Below are positions 5,106 to 49,548 of a stretch of 64,000 bases of DNA, one piece after another; the stretch's first letter is position 1, and every line of letters starts with the position of its first letter. Below the pieces are notes generated by a model that searched no databases, had not been told where the DNA came from, and saw only the letters and a program-made list of their open reading frames with translations. Source of the stretch: Patescibacteria group bacterium (GTDB lineage: Bacteria; Patescibacteriota; Microgenomatia; UBA8517); contig DATDRP010000006.1 in the NCBI GenBank assembly GCA_035291665.1, positions 74,961 through 138,960 on the forward strand. Reading direction: 5' to 3'. A program made the position numbers and the translations under genes.

Positions 5106-5996
5106 ATGACAACAAAAAGTGATTATTACGATATACTCGGAATTAATAAATCCGCTTCAGCGGATGAGATAAAAAAAGCTTACAGAAAGCAAGCTCTTGA
5201 ATGGCATCCGGACAGACATAAAGATGATAAAGAAGCCGCTGAGAAACGCTTCAAAGAAGTTAATGAGGCATATCAGGTACTTTCCGATCCGAAAAAGAGA
5301 TCGGCATATGATCAATTTGGCCATCAGGCATTTGCTCCCGGTGGAGGTTTTGGCGGACAGCCTGGTACCGGACCATTCGGACAGCAATCCGGTCAGTATG
5401 GTCCTTTTACATACACTTATACAACAAACGCAGGAGGTGGAGGAAATCCCTTCTCCGGATTTGACTTCGGAGACCCTTTTGATATTTTCGAAAGCTTTTT
5501 TGGTGGGGGAAGCGGGGGATTCAGGCGTGCCCAGCAGCTTCCCCGATACAGTATAAAAATAGATTTCATGGATTCGATAAACGGAGTCGAAAAGAATGTT
5601 GAAATCGGCGGCAAAAGAAGGAAAATTAAAATCCCTCCGGGAATTGATGAAGGTTCAAGGATAAAATTTGATGACTTTATTTTATCGGTCAATATTGCTC
5701 CGCATGAAGTTTTTGAGCGTGACGGAGCGGATATTTATATGCGCTACGAGATTCCGTTTTCACTGGCAACACTCGGCGGGGAAATAGAAATTCCAACTGT
5801 AGAGACGCTTGTGAAAGTCCGTATCCGCCCCGGAACCCAATCGGGTACGATGCTTCGCCTCAGGGGGAAAGGTGCACCCAATTTACATGGACATGGCAGA
5901 GGTGATCAATATGTGAGAGTGAATATTCTGATCCCCGACAAACTATCCCGAGAACAAAGATCTGCGGTTAATGACCTGAAGAGGGAGGGATTATGA
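5106..5996 (+). CDS. dnaJ: DnaJ-like J-protein lacking the zinc-finger domain (class B/CbpA-like)
   Basis: J-domain with HPD ([33 protein letters not shown]), a G/F-rich region and the C-terminal substrate-binding domains. No cysteine anywhere, so there is no CxxCxGxG repeat. The listed ORF starts at a TTG at 5100. The ATG at 5106 gives MTTKSDYY. Confidence 0.8.
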
Positions 5997-6027
5997 CATC
6001 CTCCCCGTCTTGAAAGGCGGGAGGATT
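5993..6027. repeat. REP-like miniature palindromic element, copy A (ATGACATCCTCC plus GC hairpin)
   Basis: ATGACATCCTCC at 5993-6004 overlaps the dnaJ stop. The stem atcctccc / gggaggat encloses cgtcttgaaaggc. The same 12-mer begins copies at 15809 and 49496. Confidence 0.5.
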
Positions 6028-6177
6028 ACTTGAAATATCGAACAACTCTGGCCTCACAAGAATGTAATTCAAGAAGTAAATAATTCCATCTGACGGAAAT
6101 TAAAACAATTCGTTGTGTACGGCTCCCGTTTTTATATTCATGTCGTTTTTAATATTTTCAGTATTTTATATTCACTG

Positions 6178-6198
6178 CATCACTACATAGTGATGTAG
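6178..6198. promoter_or_regulatory. Palindromic 21-mer CATCACTACATAGTGATGTAG, copy 1 (downstream of the TrpR-like gene)
   Basis: Core CACTACAT-AGTG-ATGTAGTG is an 8-bp inverted repeat. An identical 21-mer is at 6752-6772. Confidence 0.6.
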
Positions 6199-6200
6199 TG

Positions 6201-6737
6201 TTAACGTTTTTGGTAGCTTTTAAACTCTTCCGATAAGTCTTCCCTTATCTTTCTATTTACTGCCTCTTTTTCTTCGACACCTTTAAAAAATTTCTCCAAT
6301 TTCATATTTTGATTTTTAACAATGGAATGTTCCACCAGAGTCAGAAGTACTTGTGGGAGTTGAAATTCGATAGGGATGCGTGGAAGTTCCTTAGGAAAAT
6401 CGTATTTAGCAGGTAACTTTGCGATTATTTTTCTGAAACCGTTTCCACCTTTTAAAAGCCAATTACTAACCTTCGCAACCGTACCAAAGCTGGTATGAAG
6501 TGTTTTAACAATATCTATTTGTGTTTCCCCTTTTAATAAAAGCTTTGCAATACGGAGTCTTATAGCCAAGTTTTGTATTTCCTTTGCTGTCAGAAGATCT
6601 TGAAGAAAATCGGCGGTATCCATGGCATTTCTGACTGTTTTAAAAGAATTGATTAGATCAAACATTAATTCCAGTCTCTCTTCTTTTGAAAACTTTTCCT
6701 CTCTTTTTATTTTTGGGTAATATGTTCTTCTTCTCAT
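6201..6737 (-). CDS. TrpR-like DNA-binding protein (YerC/YecD family) with a ~70-aa C-terminal extension
   Basis: The segment FLQDLLTAKEIQNLAIRLRIAKLLLKGETQIDIVKTLHTSFGTVAKVSNWLLKGGNG matches the YerC/TrpR helix-turn-helix core. Confidence 0.6.
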   Translation of the reverse strand: MRRRTYYPKIKREEKFSKEERLELMFDLINSFKTVRNAMDTADFLQDLLTAKEIQNLAIRLRIAKLLLKGETQIDIVKTLHTSFGTVAKVSNWLLKGGNGFRKIIAKLPAKYDFPKELPRIPIEFQLPQVLLTLVEHSIVKNQNMKLEKFFKGVEEKEAVNRKIREDLSEEFKSYQKR

Positions 6738-6751
6738 TTATATTCTTACTA

Positions 6752-6772
6752 CATCACTACATAGTGATGTAG
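6752..6772. promoter_or_regulatory. Palindromic 21-mer CATCACTACATAGTGATGTAG, copy 2 (15 nt upstream of the TrpR-like start codon)
   Basis: Identical to 6178-6198. Its position fits an autoregulatory operator. Confidence 0.6.
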
Positions 6773-6908
6773 ATATTAATACTATTTATTAAGCAAGGCA
6801 GATACAATGTGTACTAATAAACCTCTCATAGGATTTCCTCAATTATATACGGATCTATACGGCTCTGAAAATTAAAAGTGATATAATCTCTGTACCTGTC
6901 CAATACCC

Positions 6909-7886
6909 ATGGACGATTTGTTTTTAGCAATATTTCTTCTTACTCCTATTGCATGGATAGTTGCCATGATTCGACCGGGTTTATTTTCCAAAATCCCCAT
7001 TAAAAATTTAAACCGGAAGAAATTAACAGGAATTTTATTGGCGCTTTTTATTGTCTCGTTTGTGGGTTTTGGAGTTACTTCCAAACCGGTTGAGGAAAAT
7101 GTAAAAGAAGAAGTGCAAAGTTCATCAACCGAAGAACAGGACACAAACGTCTCTTCGGTTGAAGTTGAGGGCGGTGTTGCGGTTGTCAAAAGGGTTGTTG
7201 ACGGGGACACGATTGAGTTGGATAGCGGTGCCAAAGTCAGATATATCGGGATTGATACTCCTGAGTCGGTTGATCCGAAAAAACCGGTTGAGTGCTACGC
7301 TGAAGCAGCTTCAAAGAAAAATAGAGAATTAGTTGAGGGTAAAGAGGTCCGTCTTGAAAAAGATGTTTCGGAAACCGATCGCTACGGAAGGCTTTTACGG
7401 TATATTTGGATCAACGACAGTTTAATAAATGAAATTCTTGTTCGGGAAGGGTATGCCCGCTCAAGCACATATCCGCCGGACGTGAAATATCAGGAGAGGT
7501 TTCAGATTGCCGAAAAAGTTGCCAGGGAAGAAAAATTGGGTTTATGGGGAGAGGAGTGCGTGATAAAGCCAACTCCGACTTTGGTTCCGTCAGCCAAACC
7601 GACAGTTTATATTGCTCCCACAAAAGCTCCAACTACTTATTATGTTGCTCCGACATCTGTTCCTTACGTTGCACCCACCAACCTTCCGGCAGCAGTAAAT
7701 CAGCAAACCGGTGGCCAACCGGGAGGAGGAGGGACATCGGGGTCTTGGTCTTGCGACTGTTCAAAGACTTGCCCGAATATGTCATCCTGCGCAGAAGCGT
7801 ATTTTCAGTTGAATAACTGCGGATGTTCAATCCGCGATGGAGACGATGATGGAGTCCCTTGCGAATCTATCTGTTCGGGAGGATAA
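6909..7886 (+). CDS. Secreted or membrane-anchored thermonuclease (SNase-like) with a C-terminal Excalibur calcium-binding domain
   Basis: N-terminal hydrophobic segment(s). SNase core (VVDGDTIELDSGAKVRYIGIDTPE ... RYGRLLRYIW ... EKLGLWG). A P/T/A-rich linker with YVAPT repeats. A Cys-rich tail with DGDDDGVPCE (Excalibur DxDxDGxxCE). The start codon is uncertain. Confidence 0.75.
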   Translation: MDDLFLAIFLLTPIAWIVAMIRPGLFSKIPIKNLNRKKLTGILLALFIVSFVGFGVTSKPVEENVKEEVQSSSTEEQDTNVSSVEVEGGVAVVKRVVDGDTIELDSGAKVRYIGIDTPESVDPKKPVECYAEAASKKNRELVEGKEVRLEKDVSETDRYGRLLRYIWINDSLINEILVREGYARSSTYPPDVKYQERFQIAEKVAREEKLGLWGEECVIKPTPTLVPSAKPTVYIAPTKAPTTYYVAPTSVPYVAPTNLPAAVNQQTGGQPGGGGTSGSWSCDCSKTCPNMSSCAEAYFQLNNCGCSIRDGDDDGVPCESICSGG

Positions 7887-8029
7887 ATATTAAATTCAAC
7901 CCCAATAACCACTCAGAAAAATTCGTTACCGATTTTTTGAAAATCCTTGCAAGATAATTATTTCTCGTTTGTTGTCGACGGCCTCTTAATGTTGAATAAA
8001 ATTATTATTTTGGAGTTTTTGTGCACGAC

Positions 8030-8278
8030 TTAATCTTCGTGTTTTATTTCTGGCTCATTACCGAGCAATCTTTTCAACACCTGATCCATTCGGTAGAGAC
8101 GTAATTTCATAGTTTGGGCTAACGTCCCGAATACGCTTTTTACAATTTCTTCCTCTTCGGGAGAAGTGGGTTTCTCACAGTCGATCCATTTTTGAAACTC
8201 ATTCATAAGCTGATATGACTTTAACTGATCGGCAGACATTACCGAAAAGTCGGGATCACTACTTTTATTTTTTTCCAT
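8030..8278 (-). CDS. Hypothetical protein (82 aa)
   Basis: Intact ORF on the minus strand with no recognisable domain. Confidence 0.3.
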   Translation of the reverse strand: MEKNKSSDPDFSVMSADQLKSYQLMNEFQKWIDCEKPTSPEEEEIVKSVFGTLAQTMKLRLYRMDQVLKRLLGNEPEIKHED

Positions 8279-8413
8279 AATGTAATTATACCTTATAGTT
8301 AAAAATTAATAAATCAATTTGTTTGGTAAAGCTTAATTTAATGTAACTCATCTTACGATTTATTGACTCGGAAACGCATTACTTGTACACTATCAGTGGT
8401 TAGAAATGGATGA

Positions 8414-8441
8414 GGTGGGAATTTTGCCCGCCTTTTTTGTT
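8414..8441 (+). terminator. Intrinsic-terminator-like hairpin in the nusA leader (candidate attenuator)
   Basis: Stem GGTGGG / CCCGCC (6 bp with one G-U pair), loop AATTTTG, then TTTTTTGTT. It lies after a TTGACT (8363-8368) ... TACACT (8386-8391) promoter and 90 nt upstream of nusA. Confidence 0.4.
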
Positions 8442-8529
8442 AGTTGGCGCAAAGAGAAAAGCGAAGAGTGAAAAGCAATAAACTTTGTACTTTGAACTTT
8501 TTTCTATGTACTAACGCAAAGCGTTTTAT

Positions 8530-9828
8530 ATGCAGACACCAAGAACAGAATTTGCACAAGCCCTTCGGGCAATCGCAGCTGAGCGGGATCTTGATCCCGA
8601 GGTTATTATTGACACCATTAAGCAGGCAATTGTTGCTGCTTATAAAAGGGATGCCAAAGATCAAGGTGTCGAAACTGAAGAGTTTGAGTATGAAGTTGAG
8701 TTGAACCCCTCAAACGGTGAAGCAAAAGTTTTTTCGTGGCCACTGGAGAAACCCGAAGAGAAAAAAGATGTAACACCCCCCGGTTTCGGAAGGATAGCAG
8801 CCCAAACAGCAAAACAGGTAATTCATCAAAAGATCCGTGAGGCTGAAAAAGGGGCCATTATCAGTGAGTACAGCGAAAAAGTCGGCAGTCTTGTGACGGG
8901 AATGATACTTCGTTTCGAAGGCTCGGACGTTCGTGTTGATCTTGGAAAAACAGAAGGGATAATGCCGGCGTCGGAAAGAGTCCCGAACGAAAGATTAAAC
9001 GCCAATCAAAGGCTGACGTTTTTGCTGAAAGAAATCACAGAAACTCCGAAGGGAAAACTATTAACCCTCTCAAGGTCTGATCCCCAATTCGTTCAAAAAC
9101 TTTTTGCGAGAGAGGTTCCTGAGATCGGTTCGGGAAGTGTTGAAGTGAAAGGGATTGTCAGAGAACCGGGAGTAAGGTCAAAAATTGCCGTGTTTTCGAA
9201 TCAATCAGGAGTTGATCCGGTTGGCTCATGTGTCGGTCAAAAAGGTGTCCGGGTACAATCCGTCACAAATGAACTTGGCGGAGAGAGGGTTGATATTGTT
9301 CCTTTTAATATCGATTTGGTTGAATTTGTCAAAGCAGCACTTTCTCCTGCGGAAGGATTAAGCGTTTCGATCAGCAAAGACAAGACAGGTGCAATTGTTA
9401 AAGCTCCGGAGGACCAGCTTTCCCTGGCTATCGGACGTGAAGGACAGAATGCGCGTTTGGCATCAAAATTGACCGGAGTAAAAATTGATATTGAAGGTAT
9501 TCCCGGAGAGAAAACCCCAAAGTCTGTAGAAAAAGAGGAAGTAAAAGTGAAAACTGAAGAGAAGGCGGATTTGGTACCCTCGGATGAAAAACCGGCTGAA
9601 GAGGCTCCTCTTGCTGGAGAGGCTGATTTACCAACCCAAACACAGCCTATACAAGCTAACGATTCCGCTTCGAACAATTCCGGAAGCGCTCCGTCGGATG
9701 ATCAGGCAGGTAGCGTTACAAGTAATGACAATACGGCAGTCCCACAGGCTGAAGAAACCGCAGACACTAAAGAAGTATCCGTTGACGATTTGAAAAAGCA
9801 GGGAGACGATAAAAAAGACGAAGCTTAA
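8530..9828 (+). CDS. nusA: Transcription termination/antitermination factor NusA
   Basis: N-terminal domain, S1 and two KH domains. Acidic, low-complexity C-terminal tail. No AR1/AR2. Confidence 0.9.
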   Translation: MQTPRTEFAQALRAIAAERDLDPEVIIDTIKQAIVAAYKRDAKDQGVETEEFEYEVELNPSNGEAKVFSWPLEKPEEKKDVTPPGFGRIAAQTAKQVIHQKIREAEKGAIISEYSEKVGSLVTGMILRFEGSDVRVDLGKTEGIMPASERVPNERLNANQRLTFLLKEITETPKGKLLTLSRSDPQFVQKLFAREVPEIGSGSVEVKGIVREPGVRSKIAVFSNQSGVDPVGSCVGQKGVRVQSVTNELGGERVDIVPFNIDLVEFVKAALSPAEGLSVSISKDKTGAIVKAPEDQLSLAIGREGQNARLASKLTGVKIDIEGIPGEKTPKSVEKEEVKVKTEEKADLVPSDEKPAEEAPLAGEADLPTQTQPIQANDSASNNSGSAPSDDQAGSVTSNDNTAVPQAEETADTKEVSVDDLKKQGDDKKDEA

Positions 9829-9864
9829 TGAAAAATTTATTCTTTTTTAGAAAGGAACAATTTT

Positions 9865-11274
9865 ATGATGGAAACAAGACCTCCGGTTGTAACAGTCTTA
9901 GGCCATGTTGATCACGGCAAGACGACGCTTCTTGATGCTCTAAGAAAAACTTCTGTTGCCGAAAAAGAAGCCGGCGGAATAACGCAAAGCATTGGTTCAT
10001 CTGTTGTTACAACGGCAGACGGTAAGAAAATAACTTTTATTGATACACCCGGGCACGCTGCTTTCACGAAAATGCGGAGCCGTGGAGCGAAAGCTGCCGA
10101 CATCGCAATACTGATAGTTGCTGCAGATGATGGCGTTAAACCACAAACAAAAGAAGCCCTAAAAATAATTTTGGGAGAGCATATCCCATATATAGTAGTT
10201 CTCACAAAGAAAGATTTACCTAATGCTGACACAGAGAAATGTCTTGGTGAACTTGAGAAAGAGGGCATTGCTTTCGAAGGAAGGGGTGGCGATGTACCGT
10301 ATCTGGCAGTTTCTGCAAAAAAAGGTGAGGGGTTGAAAGAACTTCTGGAATTGATAGTCTTGGTGGCCGATGTCACCGGAATTAATGCTGATAAACAGGG
10401 AGCACTTCAGGGATTTGTTGTTGAAACAAGAAAAGACAAACGCGGACCTTTGGCATCTTTGGTAATTACAAACGGAACAATGCGAATTGGAGACGATATA
10501 TTGTGCGACCAAAAAGTGAGTAGGGTGAGGGGGATATTTAATTTTCTTGAAAAGTCGGTAAAAGAAGTTTTTCCCGGAGAACCCGCACTCGTTATTGGTT
10601 TTACTGAACCTCCGGCAGTCGGGTCACAAATTCATTCCATATCGGATAGTTCGGTTGAGGTAAAAAAAGATATTCCGATCGATGTGAGAGGTGAAGAAAC
10701 AAAATTAGGTAGTATTCCCAAACTCAGGCTTGTAGTTAAAACCTTGACCACCGGGAGTTTGGAAGCAATTACCCAGGGTTTGCCGGACGGGGTTGAAGTG
10801 GTTTCAAAAGGTGTAGGAGACGTTATTGATGCTGATGTTTTTTCCTGCAAAGCCTCCAGAAACTGTCGGATATTTGTATTCGAAGCTAAAGTTCCGAATG
10901 ATGTTTCAAAACTAGCTGAAATGGAAGGAGTAGAAATTGAAAGCTTTAATATAATCTACAAACTGTTCGAAAGAGTCGATGAAATTATAAAATCCGGAGA
11001 AGACGAGGTGATGGGAAGTGCTGAAATTATTGCAATATTCCCCTACGAGAAGAAAAGAGTTGCAGGCTGTAAAGTAACCAAGGGTGTAATTGAGAAGAAA
11101 TATCCCTTAAAAATTATGAAAAAAGGAAAAAGTATTGGTAGAACGAAAATCGTTTCAATGAAAAAAGAGAAAAAAGATATTATCTCCTCTGTTGCCGGTG
11201 AAGAATTCGGGGCAATCTTTGAGCCTTATCTTGATTTTGAGAAAGGCGATGTGTTAATATCCATACGCAAATAG
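9865..11274 (+). CDS. infB: Translation initiation factor IF-2 (short form, 469 aa)
   Basis: G domain ([31 protein letters not shown]) followed by domain II and the C domains. It lacks the long N-terminal region. Confidence 0.9.
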   Translation: MMETRPPVVTVLGHVDHGKTTLLDALRKTSVAEKEAGGITQSIGSSVVTTADGKKITFIDTPGHAAFTKMRSRGAKAADIAILIVAADDGVKPQTKEALKIILGEHIPYIVVLTKKDLPNADTEKCLGELEKEGIAFEGRGGDVPYLAVSAKKGEGLKELLELIVLVADVTGINADKQGALQGFVVETRKDKRGPLASLVITNGTMRIGDDILCDQKVSRVRGIFNFLEKSVKEVFPGEPALVIGFTEPPAVGSQIHSISDSSVEVKKDIPIDVRGEETKLGSIPKLRLVVKTLTTGSLEAITQGLPDGVEVVSKGVGDVIDADVFSCKASRNCRIFVFEAKVPNDVSKLAEMEGVEIESFNIIYKLFERVDEIIKSGEDEVMGSAEIIAIFPYEKKRVAGCKVTKGVIEKKYPLKIMKKGKSIGRTKIVSMKKEKKDIISSVAGEEFGAIFEPYLDFEKGDVLISIRK

Positions 11275-11368
11275 TATTATTACTATAAGTTACGATATCT
11301 TTTGCTTTTGCGATAGTATTGTAAAATTATTAGGACAGATAGACAACTTGTCTAATAAATAAAAAGCT

Positions 11369-12439: not shown

Positions 12440-12440
12440 T

Positions 12441-12770
12441 CTACTCGCTTTCATTATCTTCGATAAATACATCACGCGATGCATAAACCACTTCATGTAC
12501 CTCACCATTATTAAGTTTTAATTGTCCATATCCGTGTCCCGACCCGGGAATATATTGGTGATCGACAATTTTACCTTTTTCTTTTTCACCAGTAATACGA
12601 TGGTGTTCTCTTATATCTTTTAACCATTTCGGGATCGGGATTTTTTGCACACCATGAAATGTTATTGGACACGTATTGGGAGATGGTGTTCCATCTACAT
12701 TCTCAGGCCAGTCGATATTTTCGATTCTGAACTCACAACCATAGACTGTGCATTTAATCTCACCTTTCAT
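12441..12770 (-). CDS. Hypothetical protein (109 aa) with Cys/His clusters
   Basis: Intact ORF. CTVYGC...TCP and HHRITGE...GSGHGYG suggest metal binding. No confident family assignment. Confidence 0.4.
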   Translation of the reverse strand: MKGEIKCTVYGCEFRIENIDWPENVDGTPSPNTCPITFHGVQKIPIPKWLKDIREHHRITGEKEKGKIVDHQYIPGSGHGYGQLKLNNGEVHEVVYASRDVFIEDNESE

Positions 12771-13355: not shown

Positions 13356-15638
13356 ATGAAAAAAATTGAAAAAACATTTGAGTTAGCGGGTAAGAAATTA
13401 ACCCTTACCACCGGTCATGTTGCCGCGCAGGCAACCGGAGCGGTTATGGCCCAATACGGCGAGACTGTTGTCTTGGCAACAGTTGTCTCGGCACCCTTAA
13501 AGCAACAGTTGGATTATTTTCCTCTCAGCGTTGAATATCAGGAAAAACTTTACGCCGGCGGAAGAATCAAAGGCAGCCGTTGGGTGAAAAGGGAGGGACG
13601 TCCTACCGATGAGGAAATATTATCCGGAAGACTTATTGACCGTTCGATAAGACCGCTTTTCCCCAAGGAGTATAAGAAGGATGTTCAGGTTATTTTGACA
13701 GTTTTATCCGTTGATATGGAAAATTCTCCGGCAATAACAGCCGCGATTGCAGTTTCGGCAGCTTTATCCCTGTCGTCAATTCCCTGGATGGGACCTGTCA
13801 GTATTTTACGGGTTGGTCTTGATGGAGATAAATACGTAATTAACCCAACAAACGGACAAATGGAAGCGTCTCCCTTGGATTTGATTGTTTCTTCAACAAA
13901 AGATGCTGTAGTAATGATCGAGGCGGGTGGAAACGAAGTCCCCGAGGAAAAAATCATTGCCGGTATAACAGAAGCTAAAAAGGAAGGCGATAAATTAATT
14001 AAGTTTATTTCCGACTTTGCCGATTCGGTCGGTACGAAAAAAGAAGTCCTTCCCAAAGAAGAAAAAAACGAGTCAGTTATTAAAAAAGTAAAAAAACTTG
14101 CTGACGATACCCTGAAAGATTTGGTTTCCAAAATGGCAACCAAAGAGGCTGATTATGCCACATTCGACGAAGCCAAAAAGGCTGTTATGGCTGAGTTTGA
14201 GGGTGATGAGGTTTTACTTGCAGGTGAGGTTTTTGAGAAGTTATATAAAGATGAAGTTCGGAAACTCATTCTTTCGGGTAAACGCGCTGACGGAAGGAAA
14301 CACGATGAACTAAGAGAACTCTCGGCTATGGTATCTGTTCTTCCCAGAACTCACGGTTCAGCTATTTTCAGCCGGGGACAAACACAAGCTTTATCGATTG
14401 CAACAATTGGTGCACCTTCACTGGGGCAAACGATTGAATCTGCAGAAGGTGAGGAAACAAAACGCTATATGCACCATTACTCAATGCCGCCGTTTTCAAC
14501 CGGAGAAACCGGAAGAATCGGATCTCCATCCAGAAGAGAGATCGGGCATGGCGCTCTTGCTGAAAGAGCTCTTCTTCCTGTTATTCCATCAGAGGATGAG
14601 TTTCCGTACGCCATAAGAGTTGCGACTGAAGTTCTATCATCGAACGGATCAACTTCAATGGCATCAGCTTGTGGATCGTCTCTTTCACTGATGGATGCAG
14701 GTGTTCCGATAAAGTCTCCGGTTGGTGGAATAGCAATGGGAGTTGTTATCGAAGACGAGAAAAATTATGCAATTTTGACAGACATTGTTGGTATAGAGGA
14801 CGGAAATGGTGATATGGATTTTAAGGTAGCCGGGACTAAGGATGGAATTACAGCACTTCAGCTTGATGTAAAAACATTAAAATTGTCAGTTGATATTTTG
14901 GAAAAAGCAATCGCTCAAGCTAAAACAGCAAGAGAGAAAATTTTAGCAGTCATGACAAAGGCGATTTCTGCTCCTCGGGAAAAAGTTTCAAAATATGCTC
15001 CAAAGATTAAGATTATAAAGATTGACGTAAGTAAAATTGGGGAATTAATCGGTCCGGGTGGAAAGATTATCAAAGGTTTGATCGCATCAACAGGCTCACA
15101 AATAGACGTTGATGACGATGGAAAGGTTTTCATTTCAGCAGTTGATGAGGCAAGCGTTGATAAGGCAGTTGAAGCTGTAAACAATCTTTTCAGAGAGCCG
15201 GTTGCAGGCGAGGTTTATGAGGGTGTTGTTCGGAGAATCCAGCCATTCGGTGCTTTTATTGAAATTTTTCCCGGAAAAGAAGGAATGGTCCACGTTTCCG
15301 ATATGAGTGAGGATTATGTTTCGAATCCTTCGGATATTGTTAAAATCGACGACGTTGTCAAAGTCCGCGTCAAAGAGATTGATGAACTGGGTAGGGTAAA
15401 CCTTTCGATGCTTTTGGATGGTGACAAACCAAAAGCACCAAGGCGTGAAAGTGGAGGTTTCGAAAGACGTTATGATGACCGTGGTTCCAGGGGTGGCGGA
15501 ATGTCAAGAGACCGGCGTCCCAGAAGAGATAATTACTCAAGAAATGACAGACGCGATAGATCCGGTGGCAGATCCGGTGGTCCCCACTTCCCTACCAGCA
15601 GGTTTATTGAAGAAAGCAGAAAGAAGTACGACAGATAA
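13356..15638 (+). CDS. pnp: Polynucleotide phosphorylase
   Basis: Two RNase PH domains, then KH and S1 domains, then an R/G/D-rich C-terminal tail. Follows rpsO as in the canonical operon. Confidence 0.95.
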   Translation: MKKIEKTFELAGKKLTLTTGHVAAQATGAVMAQYGETVVLATVVSAPLKQQLDYFPLSVEYQEKLYAGGRIKGSRWVKREGRPTDEEILSGRLIDRSIRPLFPKEYKKDVQVILTVLSVDMENSPAITAAIAVSAALSLSSIPWMGPVSILRVGLDGDKYVINPTNGQMEASPLDLIVSSTKDAVVMIEAGGNEVPEEKIIAGITEAKKEGDKLIKFISDFADSVGTKKEVLPKEEKNESVIKKVKKLADDTLKDLVSKMATKEADYATFDEAKKAVMAEFEGDEVLLAGEVFEKLYKDEVRKLILSGKRADGRKHDELRELSAMVSVLPRTHGSAIFSRGQTQALSIATIGAPSLGQTIESAEGEETKRYMHHYSMPPFSTGETGRIGSPSRREIGHGALAERALLPVIPSEDEFPYAIRVATEVLSSNGSTSMASACGSSLSLMDAGVPIKSPVGGIAMGVVIEDEKNYAILTDIVGIEDGNGDMDFKVAGTKDGITALQLDVKTLKLSVDILEKAIAQAKTAREKILAVMTKAISAPREKVSKYAPKIKIIKIDVSKIGELIGPGGKIIKGLIASTGSQIDVDDDGKVFISAVDEASVDKAVEAVNNLFREPVAGEVYEGVVRRIQPFGAFIEIFPGKEGMVHVSDMSEDYVSNPSDIVKIDDVVKVRVKEIDELGRVNLSMLLDGDKPKAPRRESGGFERRYDDRGSRGGGMSRDRRPRRDNYSRNDRRDRSGGRSGGPHFPTSRFIEESRKKYDR

Positions 15639-15808
15639 AGTCCCCCGACCTTACTTTCGCACCCATTCGCGATGGAGGATAAAATTCAGTTAAGTTTTTT
15701 TATCCTATTGGAAACCTTTTACTAATTCAACTAACCAAGATGGAGGATGTTACAACAGATTTCAAGAAAACCACCGAGTCTGACTCGGTGGATGAATTGA
15801 ATTCTGAT

Positions 15809-15861
15809 ATGTCATCCTCCTTTAGAGGAAACCCCGCTCGTAAGAGCGGGGAAGATGTCAT
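15809..15861. repeat. REP-like miniature palindromic element, copy B
   Basis: ATGTCATCCTCC at 15809-15820. A small hairpin tcctc/gagga. A perfect 8-bp hairpin CCCCGCTC-GTAA-GAGCGGGG at 15832-15851 with a GNRA-type loop. It ends with AAGATGTCAT, and a T8 run follows at 15871-15878. Confidence 0.5.
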
Positions 15862-41999: not shown

Positions 42000-42060
42000 G
42001 AAGAGAAGAATTTATACTTAAATTTGGTTAATCGTATTAACTAAATTAAAATTAATTAAA

Positions 42061-43260: not shown

Positions 43261-43295
43261 TTTTAATTTTTATTAATTTTGCTCTTTGACGACTT

Positions 43296-43607
43296 ATGGC
43301 AACTGGCAGGCTCAGAGTTAAGCTGAAAGGATATGATCACCGCTTAGTAGATGAAGCGGCAGCTAAGATATTGGATGTAGCCATTGCAACAGGTGCCAAA
43401 ATAGTCGGTCCTATTCCTTTGCCCACAAGAAGAACTCTTTATCCCGTTGTTCCCGCAACCTCGCGCGGAATCAAAAATGCCCAGGAACACTTTGAAATGC
43501 TCGTCCATAAAAGATTAATTGATATACAAGACCCCTCCAATAGAACGATAGACTCACTCTCCAATCTCGATCTCCCGGCAGGCGTCAGCATAGAAGTGAA
43601 AATGTAA
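43296..43607 (+). CDS. rpsJ: 30S ribosomal protein S10
   Basis: 103 aa. RLRVKLKGYDHRLVDEAAAKI matches the S10 signature. Confidence 0.9.
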   Translation: MATGRLRVKLKGYDHRLVDEAAAKILDVAIATGAKIVGPIPLPTRRTLYPVVPATSRGIKNAQEHFEMLVHKRLIDIQDPSNRTIDSLSNLDLPAGVSIEVKM

Positions 43608-43681
43608 TTGTAATTTCTTCTGTATTTCTTATTTACATTTAATTTACCCGACTATTAAATTGTTATATTCTTAAACTATTA

Positions 43682-44042
43682 ATGAAGTACTTGAAACTGA
43701 AAGATATAGGTGCTTACCGCAGATCATATGCACTTTCAAATTACATTTGGGAATTAGTAATAAAGTGGAACACCTTCACCAAAAACACCATTGGATCACA
43801 GTTTGTCCGAGCAGTAGATTAATGTAGCGGAAGGATTTGGAAAATATTATGTTAAAGATATGATAAGACACTATCGGATTTCTAGGGGTTCAACATTAGA
43901 GTCATTGGATTGGAATGAAAAAGCCAAGAAGCGTAATTTGTTAAATAAGACGGAATACAGTTATATTCTTCAAGAATTACTAAGTCTCCCTCTGGAAATT
44001 AACCAGCTAATTAAATTTACAAAGAAAAACCTAAATCAGTAA
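43682..44042 (+). pseudogene. Disrupted four-helix-bundle protein gene (PF05635-like '23S rRNA intervening-sequence protein' family)
   Basis: The N-terminal part (MKYLKLKDIGAYRRSYALSNYIWELV ... GSQFVRAVD) runs into an in-frame TAA at 43820-43822. The family-typical continuation INVAEGFGKYYVKDMIRHYRISRGSTLESL resumes in the +1 frame, which is the listed ORF 43860-44042. Confidence 0.5.
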
Positions 44043-44071
44043 TAATAGTTTAGTAATTAAATAATATAATA

Positions 44072-44623
44072 ATGAAATCATTTGTTTCCCGTGCTGGAGA
44101 AAAATTACAATTTGCCTTGGATCAATTTAAAATTTCCGTGATGGATCTTACGGTTGCCGATTTTGGATCTTCAACCGGTGGTTTTGTGGATTGTTTACTC
44201 CAAAACGGAGCCAAAAAAGTTTATTCTGTTGATACTGCATATGGCGAGCTAGCCTGGACGCTTCGAAAAGACCCAAGGGTGGTTGTCATGGAACGCACGA
44301 ATGCTATGCATGTGAGGCTCCCTGAAAAGGTTGATCTGGTTACAATTGACACTTCCTGGACAAAACAGAGTAAGGTGCTTCCTAATGCGTTTGAGAGTCT
44401 TGTAGCGGGTGGATTTGTTATATCTTTGATAAAACCTCATTATGAGGCCGGGAAGGGAAAACTGAAGGCGGAAGAGGTGGATAAAGTGTTGAAAGTAGTA
44501 AAGGTAGATATTGAGTCAGCTGGAGGAAAAGTAAAAAATTTGGTTGAATCTCCGATTTTGGGTGAAAAAGGCAAAAACCGTGAATTCCTGGCTTTTATAA
44601 AACCGGCTCTCCCAATAGTGTGA
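44072..44623 (+). CDS. tlyA: TlyA-family rRNA 2'-O-methyltransferase (FtsJ-like domain only, no S4 domain)
   Basis: SRAGEKLQFALDQFKISVMDLTVADFGSSTGGFVDCLLQNGAKKVYSVDTAYGELAWTLRKDPRVVVMERTN matches the TlyA/FtsJ SAM-binding core. Confidence 0.7.
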   Translation: MKSFVSRAGEKLQFALDQFKISVMDLTVADFGSSTGGFVDCLLQNGAKKVYSVDTAYGELAWTLRKDPRVVVMERTNAMHVRLPEKVDLVTIDTSWTKQSKVLPNAFESLVAGGFVISLIKPHYEAGKGKLKAEEVDKVLKVVKVDIESAGGKVKNLVESPILGEKGKNREFLAFIKPALPIV

Positions 44624-44833
44624 AGTTATTTTAGCTCTAAGATATATGTATCAAAACTAACCCGATTGGCTTATCGATATTTGAATTTATGATTCGATTA
44701 TTATGTTTGTAATTTAACCTTGCTTTGATCTTGCCTAATCAGAACTTGTTTGATATACTTACCCTCGTCGTGGAGAAAGTTCGTCGTTTGACCACGTAGA
44801 TAAAAGTTAGCTGGCTGGAATGCTTGAAGTTAA

Positions 44834-44857
44834 GGCGCCTCCCGGCGCTTTTTTATT
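44834..44857 (+). terminator. Rho-independent terminator
   Basis: GGCGCC-TCCC-GGCGC followed by TTTTTTATT. Lies 210 nt after tlyA and 135 nt before rplC. Confidence 0.6.
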
Positions 44858-44991
44858 GACTTCTTTTTGAATTTTCAAATTGTAGTTAATAAACCCTGCT
44901 GCAAACACCCCTTGAGGCGTATATGAATAATATTGGAAAGCCGAAAGGTAAGTTGCGTAGGGTTTGATGAGGTCTTAAGAAAATTATTTAT

Positions 44992-45816
44992 ATGTTGAAT
45001 AGTTTACTTGGAATCAAACAAAAGATGGGGGCAACGTATGTTACCGATACCCGCGTTCCTGTGACATGGGTAAAAGTTGGTCCCTGTATCGTAACCCAGG
45101 TCAAGAATGAAGATAAAGACGGCTACTTTGCCATTCAACTCGGATTTGAAAGTAAAAAACTCAAAAACACTTCAAAGTCTCTGCAAGGACACCTCAAAAA
45201 AGCTCTTAAAAACGATAACTTCCCCCTCCATCAAGATTCAGAAGGACAAGCTAAACACAAAGCTCAAAAATTCCCCAGATACATAAAAGAAATAAGGTTG
45301 GATTCGGAATCCGATCTTAAAGTTGGAGACGTTGTAAAACTTTCCGATGTTTTCAAAAAAGGAGATGAAGTCGTGGTTACGGGAGTATCGAAAGGAAAGG
45401 GTTTTGCCGGAGTGGTGAAACGACATCATTTTGCAGGAGGTCCGAAAACCCATGGACAATCGGACAGAGAGAGAGCACCCGGATCGATCGGGCAAAGAAC
45501 TACTCCGGGTCGGGTTTGGAAGGGTAAAAGAATGGCGGGACGTATGGGGCAAGATACTGTATCGATAAAAAATTTAATTGTTGCCGAAGTTGACGATAAA
45601 GAAGGCTTAATTGCAATTTCAGGGGGACTTCCGGGATCAACCGGGGGTTTACTCATAGTCAGAAAAACCGGTTCCGGGAAGTTGGAAGAGCTGGTTGAAG
45701 AAACGCCCGTTGCACAGGTAGTTCAGGGAGAAGAAGAGGCATCAGGCGAAGAGAAGAAAAGCGCTGATGTGCCTGAAGGTACCCAAGCGGAAGCTAAGGT
45801 CGAGGATAAAAAATAA
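44992..45816 (+). CDS. rplC: 50S ribosomal protein L3 (with acidic C-terminal extension)
   Basis: L3 core (GKGFAGVVKRHHFAGGPKTHGQSDRERAPGSIG) and a ~50-aa E/K-rich tail. Confidence 0.9.
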   Translation: MLNSLLGIKQKMGATYVTDTRVPVTWVKVGPCIVTQVKNEDKDGYFAIQLGFESKKLKNTSKSLQGHLKKALKNDNFPLHQDSEGQAKHKAQKFPRYIKEIRLDSESDLKVGDVVKLSDVFKKGDEVVVTGVSKGKGFAGVVKRHHFAGGPKTHGQSDRERAPGSIGQRTTPGRVWKGKRMAGRMGQDTVSIKNLIVAEVDDKEGLIAISGGLPGSTGGLLIVRKTGSGKLEELVEETPVAQVVQGEEEASGEEKKSADVPEGTQAEAKVEDKK

Positions 45817-45824
45817 TATAAACC

Positions 45825-46517
45825 ATGTTAAAAATTGATACATATTCTCAAGTAGGTAAAAAAACAGGTTCAATCACCGCCCCGAAGGAGCTCTCGGGCA
45901 GGATTAACATGCCGCTTTTAGCCCAAGCTGTACGTGTATACAAAGATAGACAGCACAAGGGTCTTGCAAAAGTTCAAACCAGAGGTGAGATTACCTCCAT
46001 ATCAACAAGGAAAATTTATAGGCAAAAAGGAACCGGAGGCGCCAGACATGGTGCAAAATCAGCTCCTATTTTCGTTGGGGGAGGTATTGCCCATGGACCG
46101 ACAGGTGTAAAAAGAGAGCTTCAACTACCCCGCCGGATTAGAAGAAATGCGTTGGAAGCCGCACTTTCCTTGAAATTAAAACAAACACGAGCAGTATTGG
46201 TTGCCGGAATAGATAAGCTTGATAAGACAAAAGGAGCATCAACTCTGCTTGCCGGTATCAAAAAAGACCTTGGATTGAAAAAAGATGCGTCAGCAAGTCT
46301 GGTTATGGGGGATGTGTCAGAAAAAGTAAGCAAAGCATTCAGGAATATAAAAAATCTGAATGTTTACAGATTCCCGGACCTGAACGCATACAAGGTGTAT
46401 CTTGGAGGCCTGCTTTTACTCGATGAAAATATTTTTTCGAAGAAAACCGTCAAGAAATCAAATGCCGTTGTTAAAAAAACAGTCAAAAAAACAGTTAAAA
46501 AAATAAAAAATAAATAA
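45825..46517 (+). CDS. rplD: 50S ribosomal protein L4
   Basis: L4 signature (GTGGARHGAKSAPIFVGGGIAHGP) and a K-rich tail. Confidence 0.9.
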   Translation: MLKIDTYSQVGKKTGSITAPKELSGRINMPLLAQAVRVYKDRQHKGLAKVQTRGEITSISTRKIYRQKGTGGARHGAKSAPIFVGGGIAHGPTGVKRELQLPRRIRRNALEAALSLKLKQTRAVLVAGIDKLDKTKGASTLLAGIKKDLGLKKDASASLVMGDVSEKVSKAFRNIKNLNVYRFPDLNAYKVYLGGLLLLDENIFSKKTVKKSNAVVKKTVKKTVKKIKNK

Positions 46518-46525
46518 ATAAGATT

Positions 46526-46801
46526 ATGAAAATTAAACCGGTCTTAACCGAAAAAAGTCTGAATGAGGCAAAAAGGGGTAAATATACTTTTTACGTTTCG
46601 AAAAACTTGAATAAATACCAAATAAAAAATTTGATCAGTGGTGCTTTCGGAGTGACTGTAACGAGTGTAAAAACAATGATCAAAAGAGGTTTAATCAGGA
46701 AAAACTATTTGGGGAGAAAGATTTCAAAAACAGCTATTAAGAAAGCGGTCGTAACTTTAAAAGATAAAGAGAAAATTGATTTATTCGAAAGCAAAAAGTA
46801 A
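46526..46801 (+). CDS. rplW: 50S ribosomal protein L23
   Basis: 91 aa. L23-like (KPVLTEKSLNEAKRGKYTFYVSKNLNKYQIKNLI). Confidence 0.9.
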   Translation: MKIKPVLTEKSLNEAKRGKYTFYVSKNLNKYQIKNLISGAFGVTVTSVKTMIKRGLIRKNYLGRKISKTAIKKAVVTLKDKEKIDLFESKK

Positions 46802-46803
46802 TT

Positions 46804-47553
46804 ATGAAAAAACTTAAGAGAATATTAGCAAAACAATCGGGCAGGGATTTCAGCGGAAGAGTTCGGGTGCGGCACCAAGGAGGACGGCAAAAGAGATTCT
46901 ATAGGGTCGTTGATTGGAAACGCGACAAAAAAGACGTTTGGGCGCAAGTTGTAGCTATAGAATTCGATCCGAATCGAAATGCCTATTTGGCAGCCGTTAA
47001 GTACGAAGACGGAGAATTAAGATACGTTTTGGCGCCCTTGGGAATAGAAGTTGGGTCAAAACTAATTTCTTCCGAAGTAGCGCCTATTGAATCGGGAAAC
47101 CACCTACCCTTATCCAAAATTCCGGTTGGCACGCAGGTTCACAATATTGAAATCCGACCGGGAAAGGGTGGTCAGATAGTCAAAGGTGCAGGTTCAGTTG
47201 CAGTTATTCAAGGCAAGGAGACTGACTATGTACTTTTAAAATTACCATCAGGCGAGGTCAGGCGGTTTGTTAACAATTGTTGGGCAACGGTTGGACAAGT
47301 TGGAAACATAGAGGCAAGAAGTGTTAGAATCCCTAATGCCGGAACCAAAAGAAGAATGGGTATCAGGCCTACAGTAAGAGGTACAGCCCAACATCCGAAT
47401 TCACACCCTCATGGAGGAGGAGAAGGAAGAAGCGGCATAGGACTTAAGCATCCAAAAACACCTTGGGGAAAAAGTGCCGTCGGAAAAACCAGAAACAAAA
47501 GAAAGTATTCGAATAATTTGATTATTGAGCACAGAAAACCTGCAAGAGGATAA
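46804..47553 (+). CDS. rplB: 50S ribosomal protein L2
   Basis: L2 signature ([45 protein letters not shown]). Confidence 0.95.
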
Positions 47554-47557
47554 AAAT

Positions 47558-47839
47558 ATGTCCAGAAGTTCAAAAAAAGGTCCGTATGTAGACGCAAATC
47601 TTATAAAAAAGGTTGAGTCTGGTATGGGCGATAAATCAAAACCCGTAAAAACTTGGGCGCGGGCGAGTATGATTCCGCCGCAGTTTGTGGGGAAATACTT
47701 CAAGGTTCATAACGGTAAGAATTTTCTAGATGTTTTCGTCACCGAAGATATGGTTGGTCACAGACTTGGCGAATTCTCACCGACCAGGACTTTCCGGGGA
47801 CACGGACAGGTTGTTAAACGTATTTTGGATAAAACTTAA
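47558..47839 (+). CDS. rpsS: 30S ribosomal protein S19
   Basis: [20 protein letters not shown] ... [32 protein letters not shown]. The ATG at 47558 lies inside a longer listed ORF. Confidence 0.9.
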
Positions 47840-47840
47840 T

Positions 47841-48317
47841 ATGGATTTTTTTGCAATACAAAAATTTGTTAAGGTATCACCGAAAAAATTGAGGCTTGTT
47901 GCCAACGTCGCAAAAAAAATGACGCCTCTTGAAGCGGTTGACAGACTCCCGTTTCTAAGAAAAAGCGGAACAGAACCAATGATAAAAGCAATTAAGACGG
48001 CAATTGCCAACGCCAAAGATAAAGAAATTAGCGATAATCTTTTACGATTCAAAGAAATCCAAATCAATGAAGGACCGAGATTGAAAAGAGGCAGACCTGT
48101 TTCCAGGGGCCGTTGGCACCCGTTTGTCAAAAGAATGAGCCATATCAGGGTGGTTATAACAAGTGTAAGTCAAGAACCTGTAAAAAAGCAGCAATCAGAG
48201 AACAAAGATGAAAAACCCAAAGCAGACAGTTCAAAAGTTAAAAATGAAAAATCAAAAATACAGTTAAAAAGCAAAAAAGACGTAAAAGAAAAAAATCTGA
48301 AAAAGAAAAAGAAGTAG
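47841..48317 (+). CDS. rplV: 50S ribosomal protein L22 (K-rich C-terminal extension)
   Basis: MDFFAIQKFVKVSPKKLRLVANVAKKMTPLEAVDRLPF. The ATG at 47841 lies inside a longer listed ORF. Confidence 0.9.
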   Translation: MDFFAIQKFVKVSPKKLRLVANVAKKMTPLEAVDRLPFLRKSGTEPMIKAIKTAIANAKDKEISDNLLRFKEIQINEGPRLKRGRPVSRGRWHPFVKRMSHIRVVITSVSQEPVKKQQSENKDEKPKADSSKVKNEKSKIQLKSKKDVKEKNLKKKKK

Positions 48318-48337
48318 ACATTTTATTTTTTTAAAAC

Positions 48338-48994
48338 ATGGGACAAAAAGTTAATCCGACAGGTTTCAGAATAGGAAGCTATTATCAGTGGCGGTCAAGG
48401 TGGTTTACTGACCCGAAAACATATAGGCAATACCTTATAGAGGATATTGAGATTCGAAGTGCCTTGATGAAAAAGTTGAAGCTGGCGGGTGTAACGATGA
48501 TTGAAATCGAGAGGCTTCCCAAGTCAATGAGCATTACTCTTACGGTATCGCGCCCCGGAGTTGTCATCGGAAGAGGCGGATCGGGAATTGAAGAGGTTAA
48601 AAAAGAAATAGTTGCGGTAATGGAGCGCTTGAGAAATAAAAAACTTAAGGATATAAAAATCGATCTTCGGGTAAATGAAGTCAGAAATCCCGAAATATCT
48701 GCAGCGTTGGTGGCGCAAAGATTGGTGTCCGATCTTGAACGTAGAATGCCCTATAGAAGAGTTATAGCAAGGACATTGGATCGGATAATGCAGTCGGGAG
48801 CTTTGGGAGCAAAGATTGTTCTTTCAGGCCGGATTGCAGGTGCTGAAATTTCAAGAAGGGAAAAATTCCATAAAGGATCAGTACCAACTCAGACTCTCAG
48901 AGAGAATATCGATTATTGCGAAATCCCCGCACTTTTGAAAAGAGGGTATGTCGGGGTAAAAGTCTATATACATAAAAAGGAAGAGGGAGAATAG
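48338..48994 (+). CDS. rpsC: 30S ribosomal protein S3
   Basis: MGQKVNPTGFRIG, KH and S3-C domains. Confidence 0.95.
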   Translation: MGQKVNPTGFRIGSYYQWRSRWFTDPKTYRQYLIEDIEIRSALMKKLKLAGVTMIEIERLPKSMSITLTVSRPGVVIGRGGSGIEEVKKEIVAVMERLRNKKLKDIKIDLRVNEVRNPEISAALVAQRLVSDLERRMPYRRVIARTLDRIMQSGALGAKIVLSGRIAGAEISRREKFHKGSVPTQTLRENIDYCEIPALLKRGYVGVKVYIHKKEEGE

Positions 48995-48996
48995 TT

Positions 48997-49067
48997 AAAA
49001 ATTAACCTAATTGACCTAATCTGGGAATTAAGTTTTTAGAAATTAGGAATTAGAAATTAGAAATTGG
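48997..49067. repeat. CTAATT / AATTAG repeat array in the rpsC-rplP spacer
   Basis: AATTAACCTAATTGACCTAATCT (+ orientation) followed by TAGAAATTAGGAATTAGAAATTAGAAATTGG (the same motif inverted, ~7-nt period). It shares the 13-mer AATTAACCTAATT with 29414-29426. Confidence 0.5.
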
Positions 49068-49080
49068 AGAGAAACGACTT

Positions 49081-49491
49081 ATGTTGGAACCAAAAAGAAG
49101 AAAATACAGAAAAGATTTCCGAGGTAGACGCAGGGGAAAAGCCCAAAGGGGAAGTGATCTTTCATTTGGAGATTTTGGTTTAAAATCGCTTGAAGTAGCC
49201 TGGGTAACAAGTAAGCAGATTGAAGCAGGCAGAAGGACAATTACTCATTCTCTGAAAAGAGGCGGGCGTGTTTGGATTAGAGTTTTTCCCGATAAACCGG
49301 TTACAGCCAGACCGGCAGGACAAAGAATGGGTAGCGGGAAAGGCGACATAGACAGATATGTGGCAGTTGTTAAACCGGGTAGGATTCTTTACGAAGTTAC
49401 GGGAGCATCGGAAGAAATAGTTGTTGCAGCGCTCAAAAAAGCTGCCGATAAGATGCCTGTTAAGACAAGAATTGTTAAAAAGGAAGGATAA
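49081..49491 (+). CDS. rplP: 50S ribosomal protein L16
   Basis: [19 protein letters not shown] ... L16 signature. Confidence 0.95.
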
Positions 49492-49495
49492 AATT

Positions 49496-49548
49496 ATGAC
49501 ATCCTCCACGGACTAAAGTCCGTGGTTTCCTATGAGGGAGGATGACAT
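49496..49548. repeat. REP-like miniature palindromic element, copy C, inside the rplP-rpmC spacer
   Basis: ATGACATCCTCC (49496-49507) + hairpin ACGGAC-TAAA-GTCCGT + GGAGGATGACAT (49537-49548). The outer arms form an 8-bp stem CATCCTCC / GGAGGATG. Confidence 0.55.

Follow-up and report, generated by a model that had tools for sequence, protein, structure and literature searches.

The PATEs (palindrome-associated transposable elements) of Haloquadratum and other haloarchaea are multicopy elements of ∼100 nt that contain no open reading frame (ORF) and consist of the fused left and right ends of IS200/IS605 elements (PMC4615843). In 2015 the same study linked the hairpin of HgcC (RF00062), an RNA expressed in Methanocaldococcus and other AT-rich hyperthermophilic archaea, to the right ends of IS1341-type (tnpB-bearing) IS200/IS605 elements and to PATEs, and PATE-derived RNAs are transcribed in Halobacterium (PMC4615843). 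Two groups of bacterial repeats also invite comparison. Repetitive extragenic palindromic (REP) sequences and REPINs, as in Pseudomonas and Escherichia coli, are short, GC-rich, intergenic palindromes or inverted doublets thought to be moved in trans by RAYT, a domesticated, single-copy IS200-like Y1 enzyme, while Rickettsia palindromic elements (RPEs) are palindromic repeats of ∼100–150 nt that appear in-frame within protein-coding genes and are read through. Here we describe a family of structured miniature elements in bacteria of the candidate phyla radiation (CPR), starting from a 64,000-nt stretch of DNA from a Patescibacteria group bacterium (the window; positions 74,961 to 138,960 of contig DATDRP010000006.1) that carries four copies, A to D. 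The copies and their relatives are very probably non-autonomous IS200/IS605 derivatives of the PATE kind, in which the two ends have been fused and the transposase and tnpB genes lost. While PATEs, IS200/IS605 ends, HgcC, REPINs and RPEs have all been reported previously, a full-text literature search, which was not exhaustive, returned no description of the family in CPR bacteria.

The resemblance to PATEs lies in the architecture. The CPR elements have covarying subterminal hairpins rather than terminal inverted repeats (TIRs), lie 3′ of a TTAT tetranucleotide target that is not duplicated, possess ends homologous to those of ORF-bearing, tnpB-linked insertion sequences, contain no transposase gene and are present in multiple copies, in two orientations, across 22 genomes. 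The right-end hairpin has, as in PATEs, an 8-bp stem and a UUUA/UUCA-type tetraloop, and the module GGAAAC-hairpin-AGGATGTCAT has the same form as the one found after haloarchaeal-type tnpB (PMC4615843). The family differs from the haloarchaeal PATEs in its host, a CPR bacterium (Woesebacteria/Microgenomates), in an internal 12-mer that is complementary to the right terminus and in its frequent in-frame insertions in conserved genes.

A conserved unit with sharp and dissimilar ends

The first-pass annotation of the window, made from the sequence alone, described three copies of a REP-like palindromic unit of 35–53 nt that starts at the 12-mer ATGWCATCCTCC. The palindromic repeats are real. The 12-mer has four exact sites, at 5993(+), 15809(+), 49496(+) and 49537(−), and two sites with one mismatch, at 15850(−) and 7779(+), compared with 0.48 ± 0.70 matches expected from dinucleotide-preserving shuffles of the window, none of which (0/100) reaches six. 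The 7779(+) site, which is within an SNase ORF and has no covariance-model match, is likely a chance match. Each intergenic copy of the 12-mer is followed by a GC-rich tetraloop hairpin. Pfam assignments confirm the neighbours of the three copies: the TGA of the dnaJ ORF (5100–5996) lies within the ATGACAT of copy A, copy B is 3′ of pnp (13356–15638) and copy C is in the 78-nt spacer (49492–49569) between rplP (L16, 49081–49491) and rpmC (L29, 49570–49779). The fourth copy, D, had been missed (Table 1).

A scan for the pattern TATGWCATCYTCC-N(10–40)-GGAGGATGWCAT across 185,579 species-representative genomes returned 57 loci. With one exception, the loci (56) belong to 22 assemblies whose titles read Woesebacteria, Blackburnbacteria, Microgenomates, Patescibacteria or (TPA) ‘uncultured Gammaproteobacteria', and at least one of the assemblies with the last title has a protein that sources name Microgenomates. 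GW2011_GWA1_39_21 alone contributes 14 loci, and the near-identity of many of its copies argues for recent amplification in that genome. The remaining locus, the sole match outside the CPR, is a 50-nt hairpin ending GGGAGGATGTCAT in the cyanobacterium Argonema antarcticum (positions 6171–6220 of the extracted locus), which may be a cyanobacterial IS200/IS605 right end rather than a chance match.

Lining up the flanks of these loci defines a conserved unit of ∼112 nt with sharp ends, TTATAACAG...GGATGTCAT, of which the 53–54-nt palindrome is only the 3′ half. The unit starts with TTATAACAGCATTCAAGAAAAC followed by a variable hairpin, and full copies comprise, in order, the TTAT target, the insertion point, AACAGCATTCAAGAAAAC, the GC hairpin P2, GGATGAATTGAACGCTGA, TATGTCATCCTCC, a small hairpin, GAAAC, P5 and AGGATGTCAT. 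P5 is an 8-bp GC hairpin with a tetraloop, and the 10-nt tail AGGATGTCAT terminates the element. The element is thus ∼108 nt long instead of 35–53 nt: the 3′ 12-mer is indeed its right terminus, while the 5′ 12-mer, which had been taken as its start, is internal, copy B reaching 55 nt further 5′, to 15754. The two ends, TTAT/AACAG... and ...GTCAT/ (slashes mark element boundaries here and below), are not inverted repeats of each other. Within the family the elements range from 100 to 141 nt.

RNAalifold analysis of 41 full copies revealed an outer helix, P1, and the hairpins P2 and P5, with double compensatory changes at 16 of the 32 pairs; the invariance of the 12-mer arms among these copies reflects merely the demands of the search pattern. 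A covariance model (R1) built from the same 41 copies detected ∼70 copies in the 57 loci, among them copies missed by the pattern and divergent subfamilies in which TTAT again precedes the element. The internal TATGTCATCCTCC and the right terminus are perfect complements of each other, and a conserved T–T mismatch is retained in the different arms of copy D. Mutual co-variation of P2 and P5, which would be expected if one protein bound both, is confined to one subclade, in which both contain CCTCGCA, the parts otherwise common to the two hairpins being GRAAA-C and CCNCG; it was not counted as evidence. The ATG of the 12-mer was also considered as the start of a small ORF (MTSSPS or MTSSTD, each followed by a stop); this was dropped because what is conserved is the nucleic acid, with covarying stems and unit-internal lengths that differ by non-multiples of three.

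Several related arrangements occur in the same genomes. Composite copies in GW2011_GWA1_39_21 (loci L020, L027, L034, L036, L046 and L052) have an additional hairpin between their left and right halves, accompanied by tandem GCTTTGCTTTTGATAAAATCTTAAGC modules that number from one to several. A sister family (L019, 653–754 and 7339–7437; L005, 4050–4148; L036, 3987–4095) has the layout TTAT/TGAATT...GCGAAAAC-hairpin-GATGA...-hairpin-GTAGT, followed by TTAT again, and its hairpin CCACGGACTTTAGTCCGTGG is identical to the right-end hairpin of copy C. One copy of the family lies ∼180 nt upstream of a 16S rRNA gene (L050, 5436–5550) and another abuts a glmS ribozyme (L012, 7293–7404).

The ends are related to those of tnpB-bearing elements

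In a blastn search of annotated plasmids and phages with a consensus copy, the 3′ 44 nt of the element matched 1644 plasmid and 12 phage records. Over these 44 nt the right end is 84–89% identical to ends located 3′ of annotated tnpB genes, and in the three records examined (Table 1) the match is on the same strand as the gene and spans its last bases and the bases just beyond. The core of the alignment is GGGAAWCCCCG..CTTTAG..CGGGGAGGATGTCA(A/T); tnpB-linked elements read GGGAATCCCCGT.CTTTAG.GCGGGGAGGATGTCAA, and the Woesebacteria unit reads GGGAAACCCCGCTCTTTAGAGCGGGGAGGATGTCAT. The right-end module of copy B likewise aligns with right ends directly 3′ of tnpB genes. A haloarchaeal-type virus contig from a scan of viral contigs contains a 426-residue IS1341-type TnpB-like ORF, assigned from its translation, and 3′ of this ORF is GGAAAC-CTCGGCG-TTTA-CGCCGGGG-AGGATGTCAT, the same module, again ending in TCAT. 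The left ends display a parallel organization. Upstream of the Neptuniibacter and phage tnpB genes are TTAC or TTAT, 15–20 nt, a similar GC hairpin and ATGGATAGCG, matched in the Woesebacteria unit by TTAT, 18 nt, P2 and ATGAATTGAACG.

IS608, the mechanistic model for the tnpB-bearing IS200/IS605 elements (IS605 and IS1341 groups), targets TTAC, and its left cleavage site and right end are 19 and 10 nt, respectively, from the corresponding hairpins. In the Woesebacteria element these distances are ∼18 and 10 nt, a geometry that fits IS608. The family shares with the tnpB-bearing elements insertion 3′ of a tetranucleotide without duplication, and subterminal hairpins, but lacks tnpA and tnpB and terminates in TCAT, compared with TCAA in the proteobacterial and phage copies.

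HgcC is the best Rfam match for copy B, aligning over the full length of the model (32.9 bits versus a gathering threshold of 50; E 3.4e-6 when 261 nt were searched), and it is also the best, sub-threshold, match for the four tnpB 3′ ends (24–37 bits). The element and HgcC have in common a hairpin, GAUGA..UGAA, a small hairpin, CCCCGC-UUUA-GCGGGG and AGGAGGUCA, and both form GC-rich islands in AT-rich genomes. The present family differs in being a bacterial, inserted mobile DNA element, and no copy in the 18 other loci scanned, which carry near-consensus copies, reaches the HgcC threshold; the only Rfam families to attain gathering scores in these loci were tRNA, rRNA and glmS, and none did so in the window. 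A hammerhead-like ribozyme (CUGAU...GAAA) was also considered but received no Rfam support, and its core does not fit.

The HgcC match raises the question of whether the copies are functional structured RNAs, either HgcC-like small RNAs or orphan omega-RNAs (reRNAs) that guide a TnpB encoded elsewhere, a role that would be compatible with mobility. HgcC is, after all, expressed, transcription of PATEs has a precedent in Halobacterium, the 3′ half of the unit equates to the 3′ scaffold of tnpB-linked RNAs and its conservation ends exactly where a guide would start. Set against this, no copy reaches the HgcC gathering threshold, the element retains only ∼57 nt of what precedes the right end and no tnpB gene was found in the ∼750 kb searched (see below). 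A functional RNA role is unlikely.

Precise insertion without target duplication

The derivation of the copies from transposon ends is consistent with the structure of filled and empty sites. The MurC-type ligase of locus L021 has exactly 36 extra residues compared with 14 orthologues, one of which is 87% identical. The empty site, in L145, reads AAATTTTGT/AAAATTCC and begins with AAAATT after the break; the filled site in L021 reads AAATTTTAT/AACAGC...GGATGTCAT/AAAATCCC, with AAAATC after GTCAT. In this pair 108 nt have been gained precisely 3′ of TTAT without duplication of the target, and the TTAT-type flank pre-exists, as it is present in the empty site. In Dtd a 36-residue insert at F/(I/V) gives a protein of 181 residues, compared with 145 in all but one of the closest homologues; translation of the insert in MurC or Dtd would give peptides spanning DELNADMSSSFRG. 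Judging by the translations, units that are in-frame and free of stop codons appear in relatives' ORFs for a MurC-type ligase, a P-type ATPase, Dtd and a glycosyltransferase. Across the family the four bases 5′ of the unit are TTAT in 45 of 48 cases, TCAT in two and TTAC in one, the last being copy B, while any of the four bases may follow GTCAT. The copies show an approximately random orientation with respect to their neighbouring genes (20 same, 18 opposite).

These data bear on the possibility that the elements are miniature inverted-repeat transposable elements with 12-nt TIRs (TATGWCATCCTCC...GGAGGATGWCATA) mobilized by a DDE transposase with duplication of TA, which is the closest formal version of the original description. 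Copy C, viewed in isolation, looks the part, its 12-mer arms being 11/12 complementary and its core flanked by T–A on both sides. In full copies, however, the 5′ arm lies inside the element, whose actual 5′ end is 55 nt away, and the base after GTCAT is not fixed. The murC pair is a 108-nt insertion that includes the left half and lacks a TA duplication, and a TA-duplicating event of 110 nt would break the murC and dtd reading frames. The TIR-based explanation is already contradicted by these observations and retains next to no credibility.

The rplP–rpmC junction provides a second comparison. In 26 of the closest metagenome rplP loci (L16 55–79% identical) the spacer ranges from −20 to +20 nt, the seven closest relatives having 20, −1, 10, 3, 4, −17 and 3 nt, compared with 78 nt in the window. 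Removal of 49496–49569 leaves TAA-AATT-ATG, a 4-nt spacer; copy C widened the junction from ∼4 to 78 nt. The first-pass suggestion that this copy is inserted rather than an ancestral regulatory hairpin, and that the repeats constitute a mobile miniature family, is thus borne out by the empty junctions of the relatives, by the murC pair and by the occurrence of the family in 22 other genomes. A search for L29 homologues returned the identical protein only, on contigs that represent one population, and all contigs of this source population carry copy C, with no empty site among them. In addition, a 718-nt metagenome scaffold (L063, positions 150–270) agrees with the window at every position beyond the end of copy C and has unrelated sequence, not rplP, upstream; the break coincides exactly with the terminus of the element and reflects either a chimeric assembly at the repeat or a further copy.

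Host regulatory hairpins, acting as terminators, RNase processing sites or stabilizers, or sequestering ribosome-binding sites, and functionally conserved at the three positions first described, would account for the strong RNA folds (z −7.6 for the B region and −3.4 for C), for a run of eight T residues (T8) 15 nt 3′ of copy B and for the CCTCC/GGAGG in the motif. Such a role is, however, at odds with the rplP–rpmC junctions just described, with copies on both strands, inside ORFs and beside unrelated genes in 22 genomes, and with the lack of a T-run after copies A, C and D. An intrinsic terminator was rejected in its own right, the T8 run following only copy B, at a distance of 15 nt, and orientation being approximately random. 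Mimicry of ribosome-binding sites through an anti-Shine-Dalgarno core, as had been proposed, fares no better: copies occur in both orientations relative to genes, and in copy C the GGAGG is 29–33 nt upstream of the rpmC ATG and paired inside a hairpin. Moreover, transposon ends in Proteobacteria, a Bacillus phage and the haloarchaeal virus contig, hence in organisms of both domains, share GGAGGATGTCA(A/T) as a conserved motif, which renders Shine-Dalgarno mimicry unnecessary. Regulatory hairpins maintained by the host are thus a highly improbable explanation.

Mobilization and the search for a transposase

If the elements are IS200/IS605 derivatives, they were probably moved in trans by a Y1 TnpA. 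In the model, a Y1 (HUH) TnpA supplied in trans would bind the two subterminal hairpins on one DNA strand and cut at two places, on the left 3′ of the flanking TTAT and on the right 3′ of the terminal TCAT; the resulting single-stranded circle would then be pasted 3′ of another TTAT without duplicating the target (‘peel and paste'). The role of TnpA, the single-strand mechanism with its strand specificity and activity at the present day in the source genome are what we infer from the ends and targets described above. In this scheme P2 would be the left-end hairpin and not a retained hairpin from within tnpB.

A number of observations weigh against this interpretation. No Y1 TnpA was found in ∼750 kb (the 57 loci plus the window) in a phmmer search of low sensitivity with an IS200 TnpA query, nor was a TnpB found in the same sequence with three tnpB products as queries, and no TnpA, TnpB or transposase Pfam family is present in the two 10-kb flanks of the window. 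The absence of TnpA and TnpB from ∼750 kb is a weak negative. The 12-bp complementarity between TATGTCATCCTCC and the right terminus does not occur in the tnpB-linked right ends, and the transposition model leaves it unexplained. The strand bias reported for IS608 and ISDra2 is not visible in the orientation counts given above, which were measured relative to neighbouring genes. In the alignment to the HgcC model, P2 is paired with a hairpin that lies within tnpB coding sequence, the insertion point in murC is ambiguous by 2 nt (AT) and copy A, judged from its R1 score, appears to be only a marginal member of the family. The ±10 kb flanks also contained no further copies of the element, and no Woesebacteria parent element was found in the ∼750 kb.

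The missing partner is one of the features that recall REP and REPIN systems, as are the small size, GC-richness, palindromic character, copy number and mostly intergenic location of the elements, and the hairpin formed by the 12-mer arms. As RAYTs are IS200-like Y1 enzymes, the chemistry would be identical. The CPR unit, by contrast, is ∼108 nt long and has two non-identical ends with polarity, rather than being a palindrome of 20–40 nt or an inverted doublet, its right end is homologous to those abutting tnpB, and its in-frame insertion into ORFs is unusual for REPs. Further, a conserved GTAG-type head was not noticed (no dedicated search was made), and no known RAYT gene is flanked by copies, the lack of a nearby Y1 gene in the 57 loci being of low power. 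A REP or REPIN system, the class to which the repeats had originally been likened, is consequently quite improbable, and derivation from IS200/IS605 ends is the interpretation retained here.

Copies in the window

The coordinates of the four copies are listed in Table 1. Copy B, the complete element, is 84–93% identical to copies in five other genomes. Its outer helix is formed by CAGATTTCAA and TTGAATTCTG, and as single-stranded DNA it folds with −29.6 kcal/mol (z −8.1). Aligning reverse-complemented copy B with copy C over its full length reveals compensatory changes in the stem (CCGCTC/GAGCGG versus ACGGAC/GTCCGT), and the two are therefore one unit on opposite strands, copy C (single-stranded DNA z −7.0) lacking P2. 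The copy C hairpin, of ∼−25 kcal/mol, falls in the operon transcript. Directly upstream of copy B there is a putative decayed right end in which GGAGGATGTTAC matches GGAGGATGTCAT at 10 of 12 positions; it is not detected by R1. Read in this way, the sequence suggests that copy B may have inserted just 3′ of the right end of an older copy. Of the additional GGAGGATG sites reported in this region, one exists, at 15742–15749 rather than 15743, while the sequence near 15673 reads GGAGGATA (15674–15681).

Copy D has TTAT 5′ of it (59663–59666), a terminal TCAT, enlarged P2 and P5 hairpins and the arms ATGTAACCTC/GAGGTTTCAT. Its helix layout is the same as that of the other copies (single-stranded DNA z −4.6), and no further copy of this type was found in any of the loci examined. 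Copy A folds weakly (z −2.3) and has no recognizable left end. On the plus strand its terminal TCAT completes the final Leu codon of dnaJ with its last base and also provides the TGA stop, copy A having replaced the end of the gene. Insertions thus explain both the odd 78-nt rplP–rpmC spacer and the dnaJ stop codon. No copy in the window is within an ORF, the overlap of copy A being limited to the dnaJ stop codon, and the four look like tolerated insertions and not designed regulators.

Table 1. Positions of the element copies and their parts in the window, and of right-end matches beside tnpB genes in other records
Feature	Sequence	Position	Strand	Evidence or remark
Copy A, right-end remnant (hairpin + AGGATGTCAT)	Window	5993..6027	−	R1 only 12 bits, E 1.4
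Putative decayed right end of an older copy, GGAAAC ... GGAGGATGTTAC	Window	15711..15753	+	Read from sequence
Target tetranucleotide of copy B, TTAC	Window	15750..15753	+	Host DNA, directly 5′ of element; flank table
Copy B, complete 108-nt element	Window	15754..15861	+	R1 121 bits, E 3e-25, over 15750–15861
Copy B, left-end half	Window	15754–15808	+	Hairpin P2 at 15771–15791
Copy B, right-end half	Window	15809–15861	+	
Copy B, right-end module	Window	15832..15861	+	8-bp GC tetraloop hairpin (15832–15851) and terminal 10-nt tail AAGATGTCAT
Copy C, P2-deleted element, 74 nt	Window	49496..49569	−	R1 68 bits, E 3e-13, over 49496–49573
Copy C, right-end hairpin	Window	49506–49525		12-mer arms at 49496–49507 and 49537–49548
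Copy C, target TCAT	Window	49570..49573	−	Plus strand ATGA, includes rpmC start codon
Copy D, divergent 138-nt copy	Window	59667..59804	+	rpoA–rplQ spacer; R1 26.6 bits, E 7e-4
Right-end match	Pseudomonas luteola plasmid	2501–2544		RNA-guided endonuclease TnpB family protein, 1473–2528
Right-end match	Neptuniibacter halophilus plasmid	2501–2544		‘Transposase' (tnpB-type), 1467–2528
Right-end match	Bacillus phage Dartukuta	1401–1434		IS200/IS605 accessory protein TnpB, 321–1418

The window, which holds rpoBC and the S10, spc and alpha operons, contains other structured sequence. A second, unrelated repeat at 880–1155, 56961–57232 and 8440–8529 consists of long, A/T-rich, imperfect hairpins of CTCTT/AAGAG units, located in the spacers that precede hrcA, rpsM and nusA; the 13-mer CTCTTATACTCTT is exact at 1121 and 57198 (0.08 expected). 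Near-identical palindromes, ACATCACTACATAGTGATGT, at 6164–6198 and 6738–6772 flank a Trp-repressor-family gene (6201–6737, −) and look like putative operator sites. At 43608–44991 an FtsJ-like methyltransferase gene (44072–44623) lies between rpsJ and rplC; the spacers on its two sides are unusually long, at 464 and 368 nt, and the 368-nt one folds at −91.6 kcal/mol. The direct repeats of the window are otherwise mostly chance matches. ARAGORN detected no tRNA in the 64 kb, which, together with the lack of any Rfam family at gathering score, fits a divergent CPR genome.

Insertion into genes and significance of the family

The element tends to keep a reading frame open. One forward frame is fully open in 31 of the 41 full copies, always through DELNADMSSS, and the net length is divisible by three in 27 of the 41. 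Open frames per element average 0.76, compared with 0.34 in shuffled sequences and 0.37 on the reverse strand, the 41 copies being non-independent. The excess fits the in-frame insertions and, as a lead, resembles what is seen in RPEs, which may be likened to the present family also in their size. The CPR family is distinguished from RPEs by its recognizable IS200/IS605 ends and by the intergenic position of all copies in the window; we know of no described insertion chemistry for RPEs. It is tentatively suggested, as a doubtful but not negligible prospect, that the family is a recurrent source of in-frame insertions of ∼36 residues in essential CPR proteins, a supplier of orphan TnpB guide RNAs, or both. 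Were the first of these proposals true, the family would be an RPE-like case of ‘selfish DNA inside genes' for which the insertion chemistry is known.

The data indicate that CPR genomes of only ∼1 Mb still carry a spreading miniature transposon, which is able to enter the core ribosomal-protein operon and, in-frame, the genes of essential enzymes (MurC and Dtd). The family currently inflates the ‘intergenic structure' of these genomes, extends ORFs and probably breaks assemblies, one contig diverging exactly at the end of an element; the covariance model and the defined ends make it possible to annotate the family in CPR genomes. Finally, these elements add a bacterial branch to the group formed by HgcC, IS1341 right ends and PATEs, and support the view that the archaeal HgcC RNAs are derivatives of transposon ends.

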